From the sequence record PQ850631.1: 64,000 nt of DNA, one strand, 5' to 3'. Below, piece after piece: positions 1-59,310 of the stretch. A program made the position numbers and the translations under genes. Position 1 is the first letter of the stretch. The number at the start of each line of letters is the position of its first letter. The notes below the pieces were generated by a model, which did not search any database, was not told where the DNA came from, and saw only the letters and a program-made list of their open reading frames with translations. This stretch comes from Escherichia phage VerenaGrendelmeier_Bas101.

Positions 1-1428
1 ATGTACCAGTTGAATCCTGCTTTAAAAGAAGTCTGGAAGACAAAAGCGCGATACAAAGTAATATACGGCGGTCGTGCATCTTCCAAATCGCATGATGCCG
101 CTGGTTTTGCTATTTATTTGGCGGCAAACTTCAAATTAAAATTTCTTTGCGTGCGACAATTCCAGAACAAGATTTCTGAATCTGTATATACTCTATTAAA
201 AGACAAAATAGAGATTTCTGATTTCAAAGATGAGTTCAATTTATTAAAGAACTCTATTGAACATAAAAGAACTAAATCTGAATTTCTATTTTACGGTATC
301 GCACGTAACGTTGATGAAATCAAATCAACGGAAGGTGTTGACGTCCTTTGGTTGGAAGAAGCGCACGCGCTTACTGAAGAACAGTGGGACATTATTGAGC
401 CGACAATCCGTAAAGAAGGGTCCGAAATATGGATCATCTTTAACCCTGATGAAGAGGCTGATTTCGTCTACCAAAACTTTGTTATGCGACCGCCGAAGAA
501 TGCCATTGTTAAAAAGATAAACTGGCAAGACAATCCATTTTTGTCGCAAACAATGCTGGACGTTATTGCAGGCATGTACGAGCGTGACCCGAAAAAGGCA
601 GAGCACGTTTATGGCGGCGTGCCGAAGACTGGCGGCGACAAATCTGTAATCAACCGCGCATTCGTTAAGGCCGCTCTTAATCTCCACAAACACCCTACGC
701 TGGGATGGAGTTTGTCAGGGTCTAACCGTATAGGCTTTGACGTAGCGGACGATGGCGACGACCTTAACGCCACTGCATTCGTCACAGGAAACGTATTGCG
801 CGGCATCAAGACTTGGGAAGGTCTGGAAGATGAATTGTTGAAATCGGCAAGCGGAGTTTGGAAAGATGCGCTTACATTTGGCGCTTCTATAACTTATGAC
901 GCCATCGGTGTCGGCGCTTTTGCTGGTTCAAAATTTGATGAACTAAACGAGTATGCAATACATGAAAATCCATCATTTCCAAGAATCGAATTTAATGCGT
1001 TCAACGCGCAAGGGTCTGTTGATGATCCTGATGACGTTTTTCTTGAGCTACCACACGTTGAAATACTCAATAAAGACCATTTCGCAAACATAAAAGCGCA
1101 AAAGTGGACTGAAATTGCAGAGAGATTCAGAAAGACATACGAATATGCAACTGGGCAAGCCGTATATCCGACTGATGAATTGATTTCAATCGACACCGAT
1201 GGTATACCGGAACTTGGGATTCCAGCTTGGACTACTGAAGAGATTGAGACGTTTCTTTTTGAGATGTCAGCGCCGCGCAAAGATACGTCTGTTCTTGGCA
1301 AGTTCAAAGTTGAATCCAAAAAGGATATGGCAAAGCGTGGAGTCAAATCACCTAACAAAGCGGACGCAGCAATCATGGCATTGATGAAACCAATTGTTGC
1401 AGCATCCGGCTTCTTCTCTAACCTTTAA
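1..1428 (+). CDS. terminase large subunit
   Basis: 475-aa ORF starting at window base 1; N-terminal P-loop-like KVIYGGRASSKSHD; directly upstream of portal-like gene. Confidence 0.7.
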   Translation: MYQLNPALKEVWKTKARYKVIYGGRASSKSHDAAGFAIYLAANFKLKFLCVRQFQNKISESVYTLLKDKIEISDFKDEFNLLKNSIEHKRTKSEFLFYGIARNVDEIKSTEGVDVLWLEEAHALTEEQWDIIEPTIRKEGSEIWIIFNPDEEADFVYQNFVMRPPKNAIVKKINWQDNPFLSQTMLDVIAGMYERDPKKAEHVYGGVPKTGGDKSVINRAFVKAALNLHKHPTLGWSLSGSNRIGFDVADDGDDLNATAFVTGNVLRGIKTWEGLEDELLKSASGVWKDALTFGASITYDAIGVGAFAGSKFDELNEYAIHENPSFPRIEFNAFNAQGSVDDPDDVFLELPHVEILNKDHFANIKAQKWTEIAERFRKTYEYATGQAVYPTDELISIDTDGIPELGIPAWTTEEIETFLFEMSAPRKDTSVLGKFKVESKKDMAKRGVKSPNKADAAIMALMKPIVAASGFFSNL

Positions 1429-2208: not shown

Positions 2209-2246
2209 ATAGATTGATTCCCTTTCACTGTCAGGTGGCGTTAACA

Positions 2247-4622
2247 ATGAAAATTCTTGGCATAAAACTCTGGGAGAAGACGCAACCAGAAGCCGAACCA
2301 GCGGAGATGCCGCCAGGCGACCCATTGGCACCGTTTGAACGCCTGGAAAGGCGCGGCAGCGGCCAACGCTGGGATAAGACCGAAAGCAACCGCCCGACCT
2401 TTAAAACCGTTGATGACTTTCCTTTATATGAGCCTGATATCAACGGGGACGGTGTTGCAATCATTAAAGGTCGCTCAGTAGATTCAGCAACCGTATCCAA
2501 AAAAGTTATGGATAATGCCTTAAAGAACATAAGTTCAGAAGGGCAGGTGAATCCATACACAGTCCCTATTCAGTTGCAAAACTGGTACTTATCGCAATCA
2601 TTTATCGGATATCAAGCTTGCGCCATCATCGCGCAGCACTGGCTAGTGAACAAGGCTTGTTCCATGGTAGGCCGCGATGCGGTCCGTAAAGGCTGGGAAG
2701 TCAAATCCAGCTCTGAGTCGGAATTGTCAGTACAGGCAAGCGAACGCCTAAAGCAAATTGATAAAGAATTTAATATCAAAGAGCACTTAGTTGAAGCCGA
2801 ACGATTCAAGAATATTTTTGGCATCCGCGTCATCATATTTGATGTGCGCAGTGATGACCCAGAATATTATAGCAAACCTTTTAACATCGATGGCGTGACA
2901 AAGGGGTCTTATAAGGGAATCATTCAGGTTGACCCTTATTGGATGATGCCATTCTTGACATCTGAAAACACTGCAGACCCTGCATCACAGCATTTTTATG
3001 ATCCAGAATATTGGGTGATCAGCGGACAACGTTATCACCGCAGCCACCTCATAATCTTGCGCAACGATGAGCCAGCTGATATTCTCAAGCCGACTTATAT
3101 CTATGGCGGCATTCCTTTGACTCAGCAGATTTATGAACGTATCTATGCCGCTGAACGTACCGCTAACGAAGCTCCATTGCTGGCGATGTCTAAGCGTACA
3201 ACCACGCTGCGGACCGACGTTGACAAGGCGATTGCCAATGAGCGGTCGTTTGCCGAACGTTTGATGATGTGGATTAAGTACCGCGACAACTATGCGGTAA
3301 AAGTACTTGGTCAGAAAGAAGAGATGGACCAGTTTGACATCAACTTGTCAGACTTCGACAGCATCATCATGAACCAGTACCAGCTGGTGGCCGCAATCGC
3401 AAAAGTTCCGTCGACAAAACTGTTAGGGACGTCACCTAAAGGCTTTAACGCCACTGGTGAGTTCGAAATGGTCAGCTATCACGAAGAATTGGAGACTTGT
3501 CAGCAGCACGATTTGACGAAGATTCTTGACCGTCACTACAAAATCCTTTTGAAATCTGAAGGTGTTGAAGTCGACGTTAAAGTGGCATGGGAGCCAGTTG
3601 GTTCACTTACTGCTACTCAACTTGCAGAGATTAACGACAAACGAGCGAATACTGGTAAGACTCTCATTGATGCTGGCGTCATCTCCCCTGATGAAGAGCG
3701 CGACCGCATCAAAGACGACAAAAACAGCGGCTACAACCGTTTGCCAGAAGATACAGCAGAAGAAACCCCAGGGATGTCTCCAGAGAATATGGCATTGCTT
3801 GGCAAGTCCGCTGGTGAAGTTCTGCAAGGTAAGGCCGATATTGAACAGGCTAAGGCTGATGTTGTCAAGATGGGCGGCCAGTTCTATAGCGAGACTGGTA
3901 TCATGCCGGAAGGTGCCGCGCGCGGTGAGTTGGCAGAAAACCCTGACAGGGCACCAGTTGAGATTAACATGGATGATACCGATGACGAATCAAGCCATCA
4001 CGTTGATGTTCTAACGCAACTTAAAGAGGGTCTGGAGGGTATTGCTGACTATTACCTTAAAGAAGGTCAGGACGTGGATTTTGACCCTCAAAAAGATGCA
4101 AGGTCGGTGCAACCGTCTACGCTTCCAAGCGTAAAAGGAAATGTCGTAAACTTGCGACACAATGTAGGGAAGATGGATGCCGCATCGCTGCCTAAGATGA
4201 AGTTGCACGGGATGATTCTTGGTATTGAGAATCCTCGCAACAGCATTCGCAGGGGTAACAGTCTTGATGGTGAATGGGCAGTTAAGATGCCGCACCATTA
4301 CGGATTCATCAAAGGAACCAAGGGTGCTGATGGTGATGAAGTCGACTGCTTTGTTGGACCAAATATGAAGTCGCCTAAAGTATTCATCATTAACCAAAAT
4401 GATAATTATTCTGGCGAATTTGATGAACACAAGTGTATGCTTGGATTCGATTCAGCAGAAGAAGCGAAAGAAGCTTATCAGGCATCATTTGGTAACGGTT
4501 GGAATGGATTCGACTCAATCCACGAATTGGATGTAGACTCATTCAAGGAGTGGTTGAAGGGTGATTGCTCTCAAGCATATGGAGCACTCAATAATCCTAC
4601 TAATTCACCGAAGCAAGGTTGA
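2247..4622 (+). CDS. portal-like protein with C-terminal inorganic-pyrophosphatase-like domain
   Basis: large ORF after terminase; start moved to ATG 2247 behind AGGTGG RBS; C-terminal HHYGFIKGT..DGDEVDCFV and AEEAKEAYQASF resemble family I PPase. Confidence 0.55.
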   Translation: MKILGIKLWEKTQPEAEPAEMPPGDPLAPFERLERRGSGQRWDKTESNRPTFKTVDDFPLYEPDINGDGVAIIKGRSVDSATVSKKVMDNALKNISSEGQVNPYTVPIQLQNWYLSQSFIGYQACAIIAQHWLVNKACSMVGRDAVRKGWEVKSSSESELSVQASERLKQIDKEFNIKEHLVEAERFKNIFGIRVIIFDVRSDDPEYYSKPFNIDGVTKGSYKGIIQVDPYWMMPFLTSENTADPASQHFYDPEYWVISGQRYHRSHLIILRNDEPADILKPTYIYGGIPLTQQIYERIYAAERTANEAPLLAMSKRTTTLRTDVDKAIANERSFAERLMMWIKYRDNYAVKVLGQKEEMDQFDINLSDFDSIIMNQYQLVAAIAKVPSTKLLGTSPKGFNATGEFEMVSYHEELETCQQHDLTKILDRHYKILLKSEGVEVDVKVAWEPVGSLTATQLAEINDKRANTGKTLIDAGVISPDEERDRIKDDKNSGYNRLPEDTAEETPGMSPENMALLGKSAGEVLQGKADIEQAKADVVKMGGQFYSETGIMPEGAARGELAENPDRAPVEINMDDTDDESSHHVDVLTQLKEGLEGIADYYLKEGQDVDFDPQKDARSVQPSTLPSVKGNVVNLRHNVGKMDAASLPKMKLHGMILGIENPRNSIRRGNSLDGEWAVKMPHHYGFIKGTKGADGDEVDCFVGPNMKSPKVFIINQNDNYSGEFDEHKCMLGFDSAEEAKEAYQASFGNGWNGFDSIHELDVDSFKEWLKGDCSQAYGALNNPTNSPKQG

Positions 4623-4623
4623 T

Positions 4624-5475
4624 ATGGCTTTTAAAGCTTCGAAAAAACGTGAACGCCGCTCACCCGATAGAATCGGGCGCGGCAGTCCGATAATCCCATC
4701 CAACGCTATTGCGATGGCCTATCGTCGTGAGATGAAAGGTCTTTGCTATGCGATGATTGACGACTATCAAGCAGGAATTGCTGAGTGGCTTGAAAAGAAG
4801 CAGGTGAAAAAGTTCTTTGCGCAAGACTCTGCTGATTCAACTTTTCAGACCTTGATGAAGCGCCTTCAACTGAAATGGGCAAAAGCATTCGCCCGTGTTG
4901 GGTCAAAGATTGCTGCAGATTTCATCAAGTCAGTTGAAAAGGGTGCGACTTCTGCTACATTCGCAAGTCTTAAATCTGCAGGAATAGAAGCGCCAAAAGC
5001 CACATATAATAAATTCGTTGAGAACACTCTTAAAACAAGCGAGACGTTCAACACGACTCTAGTGACTAAGGTTGGCGAGGATATTCACAACAGGGTGTAC
5101 GAAGCGGTGATGCTTTCGCTGACTTCGCCAGACCCAGCGCAGCAAGGCACATCCGGCATTCAGGCGGCACTAAGGAATGTAAAACAATTCTCTGCAAAAC
5201 GCGTAGACCTTATCGCCAAAGACCAAACGAGCAAACTTTATTGCGTATTAAGTGATGAAAGGATGCGACAGAATGGCGTTGAGGAATTTGAGTGGGCGCA
5301 TTCAGGAGCAGGCAAAGAGCCGCGAATATCACATGAGCACGTCGACGGCATGAGATTCAAGCTTGATGACAAACGCTTATGGGAAGTAGGTGGAGAACTT
5401 AAGTTCAAAAAGGGTGACATCGGTCCTCCTGGATGGGCAATACACTGCAAGTGCAGAAAAATACCAATTATCTGA
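4624..5475 (+). CDS. head morphogenesis protein (MuF / SPP1 gp7-like)
   Basis: follows portal; start taken at ATG 4624 just after portal stop; family assignment from position and C-terminal region, not searched. Confidence 0.5.
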   Translation: MAFKASKKRERRSPDRIGRGSPIIPSNAIAMAYRREMKGLCYAMIDDYQAGIAEWLEKKQVKKFFAQDSADSTFQTLMKRLQLKWAKAFARVGSKIAADFIKSVEKGATSATFASLKSAGIEAPKATYNKFVENTLKTSETFNTTLVTKVGEDIHNRVYEAVMLSLTSPDPAQQGTSGIQAALRNVKQFSAKRVDLIAKDQTSKLYCVLSDERMRQNGVEEFEWAHSGAGKEPRISHEHVDGMRFKLDDKRLWEVGGELKFKKGDIGPPGWAIHCKCRKIPII

Positions 5476-5482
5476 GGTCATT

Positions 5483-6403
5483 ATGACGATACCAATCAAC
5501 ACATTCCCTCTATCTGGACAAACTCCAGTCTTGCCTGCGGTGTATGCTAATGGCTTGGCAATTGTCTCAGAATTCACTTCTGATAAAAACTTGATTGTTC
5601 CACTGAGCCCGCCGCTTGCATCAGGGTATAACTCAGTAGGTCAATTCTTTATGATTGGCAATGATGGCGATTCGACCAGCAAGCCTAACCTGACATTGTC
5701 TGTGCCTAAGATGAACATCACAGACGTTCAAACTGGCTTGACTGCATCAACAATCACCATTGCTTTTGGTGAAGCAGTGATCATAGGTATGGAGTCTGGA
5801 GGGTCGAAAAACGCTGTCGCAGTCAAAGTTGTGAAAACCAGCGGCAACCAATACACGTTACCAGCGGCAACAGCTTCCGTTCTTGGTGGCGTCAAAATAG
5901 GCACCGGAATAAGCGTAGCAGGTGATGGTACAATCAGCGTCACCCAATACTCATTGCCGATTGCCTCAGCATCTACTTTAGGCGGCGTAAAGGTCGGTAC
6001 AACTCTATCAATTGATGGGTCTGGTGTGCTTAATGCAGCAGCAAGTACCGTCCAGAATGCCACTAATAGCGTCAGCAATCCTCCAACAACTTTGGTCAAT
6101 CTGGCAACCTTAAACCTTCCTGCAGGGAAATGGCTTGTAACAGCAAGTCAGTTGACTGTCGCGACAGCAGGCGTTCAAGCGAATACCGGAATTACAGTCA
6201 AATTGTCAACAAGCAATTCAGATATTACGGATGATGCATTTGCCATGTCAGCTGGAATTCGGGCTGCAGGTCGCTTCGGCGGCAACATCCCAACAAAAGT
6301 AATTACTCTTGCCGCGCCTGGTAATGTGTATTTAAACTATCAGTGCACCGACGCGTTGACATCTACCGTTTACGGACAGATCACCGCAATTAAGCTGAAC
6401 TAA
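5483..6403 (+). CDS. structural protein with internal tandem repeats
   Basis: start moved to ATG 5483 behind GAGG; two about 30-aa repeats containing LGGVK(I/V)GT. Confidence 0.45.
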   Translation: MTIPINTFPLSGQTPVLPAVYANGLAIVSEFTSDKNLIVPLSPPLASGYNSVGQFFMIGNDGDSTSKPNLTLSVPKMNITDVQTGLTASTITIAFGEAVIIGMESGGSKNAVAVKVVKTSGNQYTLPAATASVLGGVKIGTGISVAGDGTISVTQYSLPIASASTLGGVKVGTTLSIDGSGVLNAAASTVQNATNSVSNPPTTLVNLATLNLPAGKWLVTASQLTVATAGVQANTGITVKLSTSNSDITDDAFAMSAGIRAAGRFGGNIPTKVITLAAPGNVYLNYQCTDALTSTVYGQITAIKLN

Positions 6404-6551: not shown

Positions 6552-6584
6552 ATTCATCGGCAAAGGATTGCCGCGAGTTTTATA

Positions 6585-6850
6585 CGTATAATGACGTATC
6601 ATCCGTATCAAGTAAGTTGTTGTTTTCAAAAGAATCTTACGGATGATACGCGTTGCCGCCGTACCATATAGGAATTCAAATAAATTAATTTAAAATTATA
6701 TATCTAATTTAATTTTATTTTTTTATAAACTCTTATATATGAAAAGTATCCGTATCATCCGTATCATCCGTAGCACACCAGTGATAGCGCGACTTATACA
6801 CCGATACGGATAAAAATACGCCTCATTTTATCCGTATCATCCGTATCACA
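6585..6850. repeat. control region A: conserved 14-mer CGTATAATGACGTA, 9-bp ATCCGTATC iterons and AT-rich tract
   Basis: 14-mer at 6585-6598; iterons at 6597-6610, 6637-6666 (inverted), 6748-6773 (three tandem units), 6803-6812, 6828-6848; AT-rich 6670-6745. Confidence 0.6.
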
Positions 6851-6905
6851 CTAATAAAGGCGCGGCTATATCGGTTGTTATACATATTCAAACCATAATT
6901 ATTGT

Positions 6906-6934
6906 TTGCCTAAGTTTTTTTCATTAGATATAAT
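6906..6934 (+). promoter_or_regulatory. sigma70-like promoter (TTGCCT-17-TATAAT) for head/tail operon
   Basis: -35 TTGCCT 6906-6911, -10 TATAAT 6929-6934, 24 nt upstream of the start of 6958..8379. Confidence 0.5.
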
Positions 6935-6957
6935 ACACAATACTTATTTGAGGGTGG

Positions 6958-59021: not shown

Positions 59022-59310
59022 CGTATAATGACGTAAGATTTGGACCTATCCGTAGTTCACTCCACACACTTCTATGGTGCGCCGCGACTGGGTTCAGTGG
59101 TACATCTTACGGATGATACGGATGATACGCGTCGCCGCTATACTTTATACAACTTTGAAAAAAACAATTAACTCCATTTTGAATTAATTTAAATTAATTT
59201 TTTTCTACATCCTCATACTTATACTAAACTTATATTTATACGTATTATCCGTAAGATATAAGTAAAAACAAAGACTTGCGGCAATACGGATGATACGTCA
59301 CGATACGCTT
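59022..59310. repeat. control region B: same 14-mer CGTATAATGACGTA, iterons and AT-rich tract as region A
   Basis: 14-mer 59022-59035; CTTACGGATGATACGGATGATACGCGTCGCCGCTA 59107-59140 matches 6637-6666; iteron copies at 59046-59055, 59243-59257, 59282-59307; AT-rich 59145-59240. Confidence 0.6.

Follow-up and report, generated by a model that had tools for sequence, protein, structure and literature searches.

A pyrophosphatase-fold InPase domain predicted at the C-terminus of the portal protein of an Escherichia coli Wifcevirus

The 64,000-nucleotide (nt) stretch of Escherichia phage VerenaGrendelmeier_Bas101 analysed here (sequence record PQ850631.1; hereafter the window) comes from a Wifcevirus, one of the PB1-like myoviruses that infect E. 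coli, and encodes near its start a portal protein that ends in a domain of the InPase family (PF18823). As judged from profile searches and a structural model, the C-terminal ~125 amino acids (aa) of this portal-InPase protein have the fold of a family I inorganic pyrophosphatase (PPase) with the Asp triad kept; by sequence, they belong to a distinct, trimmed and divergent clade and are not an ordinary Ppa, the E. coli enzyme. The fusion, which an earlier note made from the letters of this DNA had taken to be undescribed, is already known as a computational annotation and is widespread in related phages: Iyer, Burroughs, Anand, de Souza and Aravind (2017, J Bacteriol 199:e00245-17, PMC5512222) defined the InPase clade within their 'polyvalent proteins' and reported that some versions are fused to a portal domain, citing BcepF1.124. 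On balance, we read the protein as a capsid-internal, portal-tethered and probably active phosphoanhydride hydrolase of that effector class.

The InPase domain and its candidate active site

With residues numbered throughout on an 802-aa open reading frame (ORF), except where a 791-aa model is named, Pfam InPase matches aa 660-782, which cover positions 12-135 of the 135 in the PF18823 model (E 3.4e-46); the score is 156.9 bits, or 160.3 for the isolated C-terminus, where the cutoff is 26.8. The AlphaFold2 model of the last 163 aa has a predicted local distance difference test score (pLDDT) of 87.3 and a predicted template modelling score (pTM) of 0.80, and the full-length model contains the same domain at aa 661-782 with pLDDT 85-96. 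All of the top 50 structures retrieved by Foldseek with the AlphaFold2 model are pyrophosphatases, and when PDB sequences were searched with a profile of the domain, the only matches besides the portal of phage Pa193 were pyrophosphatases. The pyrophosphatase-like C-terminal domain that the earlier note had proposed is thereby borne out, the resemblance being far beyond chance.

E. coli Ppa (PF00719; PDB 1i40 and 4xel) differs in having 175 aa against ~125 here and in sharing only ~15-21% identity with the InPase domain, which, unlike Ppa, appears to be virion-embedded. Part of the size difference lies between the Glu of the IE-x-P motif and the YG motif, which are separated by 24 aa here and by 35 in E. 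coli Ppa, the model showing a short hairpin in this place; the PF18823 clade is said to lack the beta-hairpin insert found between the first and second core strands of solved PPases (Iyer et al. 2017, PMC5512222). A weak, sub-threshold Pfam match of the protein to RRM_Thc1 (E 0.03-0.13) was set aside as a chance hit. Internal starts that would give a free InPase (Met 651, 660 or 667) were rejected, their Shine-Dalgarno sequences being weak or badly spaced and the Met residues not being conserved in homologues.

For the comparison with Ppa, the sequence and numbering of the E. coli enzyme were checked against PDB entries, including those of the D42N, D65N and D97N mutants. Both hhalign and HMMER align MPHHYGFIKGTKGADGDEVDCFVG to Ppa residues 52-75 (probability 86-91%), as the first of three alignments proposed in the earlier note had it, Asp triad included; hhalign is confident over 24 columns only, and equates Y696, D706, D708 and D711 with Ppa Y55, D65, D67 and D70. 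The triad heptapeptide DGDEVDC is the sole match in the six frames of the window to the signature D-[SGDN]-D-[PE]-[LIVMF]-D-[LIVMGAC], the PROSITE PPase pattern. The strings that the note had quoted are all present, namely HHYGFIKGTKGADGDEVDCFVG (aa 694-715, nt 4293-4358), NDNYSGEFDEHK (aa 729-740, nt 4398-4433) and AEEAKEAYQASF (aa 748-759, nt 4455-4490).

Conservation extends well beyond the triad. Across 163 diverse InPase domains, D706, D708 and D711 are kept in 98.8%, 96.3% and 100%, respectively, D737 is 96-99% conserved, and E672, R679, W688, Y696, G697, D711, Q728, E738, K740 and Y755 are invariant. All these residues are likewise invariant in 121 portal fusions, save for D708, which is replaced by Glu in 7, Asn in 1 and His in 1.

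Outside the confidently aligned segment, correspondence with Ppa is one of order along the fold. E672 lies in an IENP motif resembling the IEIP of Ppa, which holds E20; the two are aligned solely in a low-confidence extended hhalign alignment, with which their order in the model agrees. The modelled hairpin KVFIINQN-DNYSGE-FDEHKCML matches, by strand order, the Ppa hairpin bearing D97, D102 and K104, of which D737, E738 and K740 in FDEHK are the likely counterparts. This is in keeping with the second alignment of the note, which had paired FDEHK with EDAK, although no profile method confirms it; an extended or global hhalign alignment that places FDEHK on YDHIK (Ppa 117-121) was set aside as being of low confidence and contradicting strand order. 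AEEAKEAYQASF is probably the first helix after the DEHK strand in the model, at the position of Ppa helix A, which ends with Y141; the third alignment of the note seems to be off by one helix, since the E. coli segment it used would, at low confidence, be the last helix of the enzyme. The classical family I active site comprises, in E. coli numbering, E20, K29, E31, R43, Y51, Y55, D65, D67, D70, D97, D102, K104, Y141 and K142; among these, counterparts of E20, one of K29/R43, D97/D102, K104 and Y141 are plausible by order only.

Portal architecture and place in the virion

The N-terminal part of the protein is, by sequence, a bona fide portal, as the earlier note had supposed. Phage_portal_3 (PF06381) covers aa 133-479 (nt 2610-3650) with E 4.6e-88, and its identity is settled by matches to portal chains resolved by cryo-electron microscopy (cryo-EM) in Pa193 (gp19, 9b41_L, E 1.6e-250, with an alignment that extends through the InPase domain) and E217 (gp19, 8fvh_O, E 3.7e-189). 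From ~65% core identity to portals seen as dodecamers, we infer a dodecamer at the unique capsid vertex. The gp19 proteins of E217 and Pa193 are orthologues that share the barrel-bearing portal fold and whose C-terminal ~237 residues are unresolved in those structures; they differ from the protein described here in linker sequence and length.

The successive parts of the protein (Table 1) differ in order and conservation. The N-terminal extension, a region absent from the structural models of E217 and Pa193, stays below pLDDT 50 for the first 106 residues of the 791-aa model and shows an identity to homologues of 0.23; the portal core, for which the full-length model folds aa 119-501, reaches an identity of 0.65 across 120 homologues. 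Beyond the barrel helix, the linker has pLDDT <50 at 551-579 and 621-633 in 791-aa numbering (aa 562-590 and 632-644), carries a net charge of -11 (computed over aa 550-659) and varies in length from 68 to 151 aa; its identity among the same 120 homologues, compared across genera, is 0.19 versus 0.60 for the InPase domain. Within the genus, purifying selection is strong on every part of the protein, with ratios of non-synonymous to synonymous substitution rates (dN/dS) against three more diverged Wifcevirus relatives of 0.02-0.04 for InPase and 0.01-0.03 for the linker. An amphipathic helix is predicted within the linker at aa 592-614 (nt 3987-4055; 581-603 in the 791-aa model) with pLDDT 72-88, and its hydrophobic positions L600, L603, L607, I610 and Y614 are conserved in type; judging from the model, this helix may serve in docking or oligomerisation.

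In E217 (8fvh), the C-terminal barrel of the portal projects into the head and is folded only when the capsid is filled with DNA, becoming unstructured after ejection. Because the barrel points inwards, the InPase domain is very probably located in the lumen of the capsid, flexibly tethered. The E217 portal was modelled for residues 97-528 of 765, and that of Pa193 (9b41) to residue 528 of 765, with residues 529-765 lacking discernible density; the two structural papers mention pyrophosphatase 0 times, and the one on E217 contains no mass spectrometry (MS) of virions.

Particle data come from phage vB_Eco4M-7, for whose orthologue, gp36, shotgun MS of phage particles yielded 20 peptides and 559 peptide-spectrum matches (PSMs; Necel et al. 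2020, PMC7048862, Table 1 and Supplementary Table S2). When these published peptides, which are fully tryptic only, are mapped onto the ORF of Bas101, 439 of the 559 PSMs fall at aa 660-802 (InPase and C-terminal tail), mostly from two peptides; the linker accounts for 41, the N-terminal extension for 40 (peptides 23-43 and 56-64) and aa 118-549 (core and barrel) for 39. Both the Asp-triad peptide, GADGDEVDcFVGPNMK, and the extreme C-terminal peptide were detected. The InPase domain is present in phage particle preparations, and fully tryptic data cannot tell an attached domain from a cleaved one. The skew in PSMs, which are few over nt 2565-3860 and many over nt 4191-4619, may reflect a trypsin-resistant ring with accessible termini, or unequal stoichiometry.

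Homologues and genome setting

Among the portal homologues, the best 120 of 3,134 (E <= 1e-10) all have both PF06381 and PF18823 and include proteins of Pbunavirus, Serratia, Burkholderia, Xanthomonas and Luteibacter phages; one homologue (P0168) is 99% identical and has both domains. At least one (P0226) is named 'inorganic pyrophosphatase' in GenBank, and several viral examples in UniProt are called 'Inorganic pyrophosphatase domain-containing protein'. The closest described case is gp124 of Burkholderia phage BcepF1 (YP_001039808.1; P0197), also of the PB1-like phage supergroup, which combines PF06381 and PF18823, is 53% identical over 97% of the protein described here and has been read as a virion-packaged effector (Iyer et al. 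2017); it belongs to a different host and genus, and has 862 aa and a longer linker.

The domain is found far beyond portals. A domain-only homology search gave 20 short proteins, and its distribution was taken from an exhaustive search of representatives together with the full-length query: there are 11,282 InPase cluster representatives (50% identity, E <= 1e-3), in proteins of up to 6,421 aa, and 162 of the 167 sampled InPase proteins are without this portal type. PHROG matches place InPase in DarB-like and other giant phage proteins as well, and it is found mid-chain in proteins of 2000-6000 aa. In three other phage lineages it is a separate gene of 148-149 aa, lying between a shorter Phage_portal_3 portal (474-549 aa) and a MuF gene, with stop and start codons that overlap or abut (contigs L003, 6367-9316; L004, 3575-6527, and L005; L006, 3355-6473, and L007); the domain thus need not be covalently joined to the portal and is an autonomous module. 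On a P1-like contig (L002, 4549-10589), genes for Hdf-like and DarA-like proteins and a 283-aa product precede a separate 241-aa InPase gene and a portal; the hdf-darA operon of P1 encodes capsid-internal antirestriction proteins, and by sequence the InPase of this contig sits in such an operon.

Some portal homologues, about 50% identical, continue past InPase into an ADP-ribosyltransferase (ADPrib_exo_Tox; P0023, P0181, P0188, P0237 and P0267), and another into a topoisomerase IB (P0027); on sequence grounds, the portals of the PB1-like group are carriers of variable C-terminal enzymes. The protein of Bas101, portal plus InPase, unites an effector with a packaging anchor in the minimal two-domain form of a polyvalent protein, a class with at least two domains of these kinds. 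As further variations, InPase is duplicated in tandem in P0021 (1116 aa), and in the giant relative P0036 (3902 aa) a GGDEF diguanylate-cyclase domain immediately precedes InPase, with RadC and ADP-ribosyltransferase domains after it, a layout that hints at coupling of an enzyme releasing pyrophosphate (PPi) with InPase.

The mechanically called ORF runs from a TTG at 2214 to a TGA stop at 4620-4622 (+) and gives the 802 aa of the earlier note. It exists as described, but the real start is more probably the ATG at 2247, for a protein of 791 aa, because an AGGTGG Shine-Dalgarno sequence lies 8 nt upstream of this ATG, GenBank annotations of relatives begin at its equivalent and the 11 extra residues fall in gaps in 89% of homologues; no Shine-Dalgarno sequence was found ahead of the TTG. 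Region 2214-4622 is 97.4% identical at the nt level to phage vB_Eco4M-7 and 96.8% identical, with matching coordinates, to phage Bas100 of the BASEL collection.

Table 1. Coordinates of the portal-InPase gene, its predicted parts and motifs, and adjacent head genes in the window
Feature	Position (nt)	Strand	Details
TerL (large terminase)	1-1428		upstream of portal gene
Portal-InPase fusion gene	2247..4622	+	PHROG 4660 full-length match, 1265 bits
N-terminal extension	2247..2564	+	aa 12-117; predicted disordered, poorly conserved
Portal core	2565..3779	+	aa 118-522
Long C-terminal helix, predicted portal barrel projecting into head	3780..3896	+	aa 523-561 (helix 512-550 in 791-aa model)
Acidic flexible linker	3897..4190	+	aa 562-659
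InPase domain, predicted pyrophosphatase-fold OB domain	4191..4559	+	aa 660-782
IENPRNSIR	4224..4250	+	E672 (IE-x-P, like Ppa IEIP with E20) and R679, both 100% in 163 domains
DGDEVDC, Asp triad D706/D708/D711	4329..4349	+	aa 706-712; hhalign, PPase signature
FDEHK	4419..4433	+	near-invariant D737, invariant E738 and K740; 99-100% conserved
MuF-like head morphogenesis gene	4624-5475	+	PF04233, 32.4 bits against cutoff 29.6; directly downstream of portal-InPase gene

The gene order is TerL, portal-InPase and MuF, then protease/scaffold, cement and major head genes. Between the otherwise co-oriented TerL and portal genes lie two small reverse-strand ORFs of 79 and 138 aa (1432-2084, -), conserved in Bas100 and vB_Eco4M-7 and annotated there as hypothetical proteins; the 138-aa product has no Pfam match. 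The gene that follows MuF (5483-6403) is called 'tail fiber' in the Bas100 annotation, yet its Pfam match is to a head-fibre family; its product has an internal repeat, YTLPAATASVLGGVKIG / YSLPIASASTLGGVKVG, and is abundant in virion MS as gp38 of vB_Eco4M-7. Ahead of the protease/scaffold gene, the intergenic region 6552-6957 contains a cluster of a 9-nt unit, ATCCGTATC, that is for the most part paired in tandem as CGTATCATCCGTATCA, with copies at 6595, 6635 (-), 6751, 6760 and 6833; three further copies at 59105-59297 (-) bring the total to 8 matches against 0.03 expected. Flanking the cluster are a hairpin resembling a terminator (6558-6573) and a promoter of sigma70-like type (6906-6934); the cluster may be a regulator-binding box. 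Scans of the window for tRNA genes and Rfam families gave no matches.

Possible functions of the portal-borne InPase

In the arrangement we propose, each subunit of a dodecameric portal would continue from its barrel helix through a ~100-aa acidic, largely disordered linker into the ~125-aa InPase domain, so that twelve copies would be held inside the capsid on flexible tethers, invisible to symmetrised cryo-EM. Because E672, D706, D708, D711, D737 and E738 are kept together with R679, Y696, K740 and Y755, an active hydrolase is the most likely state of the domain, and we consider catalysis fairly probable; the enzyme would be a divalent-metal-dependent P-O-P hydrolase. It would be loaded into the head as part of the portal and become available as DNA leaves and the barrel unfolds, and the family context suggests, by analogy, action at or just after genome delivery. 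To act in a newly infected cell, the domain would have to be clipped from the portal. There it would hydrolyse PPi locally or, more likely, a low-abundance pyrophosphate-containing nucleotide; such a substrate, or a local role, is favoured because there are only 12 copies per virion against bulk PPi. Release and injection into the host are best treated as doubtful, and PPi as the true substrate as rather unlikely. The fullest version of the scheme, in which a head protease or unfolding of the barrel frees InPase from the portal and the domain enters with or before the DNA to hydrolyse a pyrophosphate-containing host signal or alarmone as anti-defence, is a speculative and improbable one.

Several observations weigh against an active, delivered hydrolase. 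The tether of ~100 aa would reach <= ~350 Å when extended and ~500 Å with the barrel unfolded, the tails of relatives measure 1300-1500 Å, and the portal stays in the capsid; action in the host therefore needs cleavage, and no processing peptidase (MPTase-type) domain is found in the protein at Pfam E <= 10. Fully tryptic peptides span much of the linker in virions. The classical PF00719 model, against which the earlier note had wished the domain to be checked, aligns over 25-26 residues only (model positions 32-57) and with 18.2 bits (20.6 for the isolated domain), below the gathering threshold of 23.5. Counterparts of Ppa E31, Y51, K142 and one of K29/R43 are not evident in the InPase domain, and only two basic residues (R679 and K740) are invariant in the family, where classical PPases use about four for PPi. 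Twelve enzymes cannot shift bulk PPi given the abundance of host Ppa. A literature search found no paper with an enzymatic or genetic test of any InPase (PF18823) domain, and the MS sample of vB_Eco4M-7 held a few non-structural proteins, so that virion association is strong without being proof (PMC7048862).

Two alternatives keep the domain catalytic. An anti-defence nucleotide hydrolase would differ from the preferred reading in substrate and purpose only: once released, it would destroy a pyrophosphate-bearing alarmone or signal, not PPi. Iyer et al. (2017, PMC5512222) described InPase as having four acidic residues and occurring mainly in (pro)phage proteins that are likely virion-packaged, linked related domains to NUDIX, GNAT and TmrB genes, and proposed either a nucleotide-like substrate or PPi clearance. 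The company that InPase keeps (DarB-like proteins, the hdf-darA operon, ADP-ribosyltransferases and RadC) fits the former, as do the 12 copies per virion, which favour a low-abundance target, and an active site with fewer invariant basic residues than Ppa and with invariant W688, Q728 and H739 that lack a recognised Ppa counterpart; moreover, isolation of Wifcevirus succeeded only on K-12 without resident defences, pointing to real defence pressure (BASEL). Cyclic oligonucleotide signals, however, have no P-O-P bonds, release from the portal is needed, and the PPase signature is otherwise canonical, leaving this explanation on the unlikely side. Somewhat less probable still is a local PPi sink, the other proposal of the 2017 paper, in which a true PPase would pull nucleotidyl transfer forward, either while the incoming genome is first transcribed or replicated or at a neighbouring nucleotidyltransferase-type domain. 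The complete Asp triad and PPase signature, and the PPi-producing GGDEF cyclase directly before InPase in P0036, are consistent with it, but Pfam finds no nucleotidyltransferase partner domain in the portal fusion, a tethered domain stays in the capsid, and host Ppa is abundant.

The remaining explanations dispense with delivery. As a non-catalytic pseudoenzyme, InPase could be a head-internal oligomerising or scaffolding module for ring nucleation, procapsid incorporation or organisation of the DNA spool; the family I PPases of bacteria assemble into homo-oligomers (hexamers), a dozen tethered copies would sit above the portal, the amphipathic linker helix is conserved and the linker is under strong purifying selection in the genus. 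We nevertheless hold this to be improbable, given catalytic-type residues that are 96-100% conserved across thousands of portal-free contexts, a separate InPase gene in several phages with similar head modules and mid-chain positions in 2000-6000-aa proteins. An enzyme of the producing cell, acting on PPi near replication or packaging factories and present in virions incidentally, would profit from a portal made late, when DNA synthesis releases much PPi, with fusion ensuring co-expression; against it stand the few portal copies relative to host Ppa, the fact that packaging yields phosphate (Pi) and not PPi, and the consistent company of packaged proteins (MuF, Dar, ADP-ribosyltransferases), which points to the virion, and it seems quite improbable. 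The suggestion of the earlier note, a PPi-hydrolysing domain at the packaging vertex, taken as functional coupling of PPi hydrolysis to the DNA-packaging motor, has the physical fusion to the portal in its favour and nothing else. Terminase docks on the outer side of the portal, opposite the head lumen into which the barrel and C-terminus face, and hydrolyses ATP to ADP and Pi with no release of PPi, and most of the family occurs as split genes or away from portals (of 167 sampled proteins, 162 are without this portal type); we regard this coupling as very improbable.

A capsid-internal, portal-tethered hydrolase would take its place beside other head-carried enzymatic domains tied to portal or MuF genes, such as the T4 ADP-ribosyltransferase Alt, the P1 Dar and Hdf proteins and the MuF-fused toxins of 'polyvalent proteins'. 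In those systems, the cargo is free or proteolytically released, whereas here InPase is covalently part of the portal ring, with no release mechanism evident.

Portals throughout the PB1-like group, including those of Pbunavirus phages used in therapy, bear the InPase domain. Wifcevirus, now represented in BASEL with derivatives of E. coli K-12 as hosts, offers a tractable carrier of portal-InPase; the 2017 'polyvalent protein' hypothesis, that capsid-borne enzymes act on entry, is therefore directly testable. Were the domain indeed delivered and anti-defensive, it would provide the first demonstration of a portal protein delivering enzymatic cargo, and would give the InPase family, with its more than 9,000 sequence clusters, a first assigned biochemical function.

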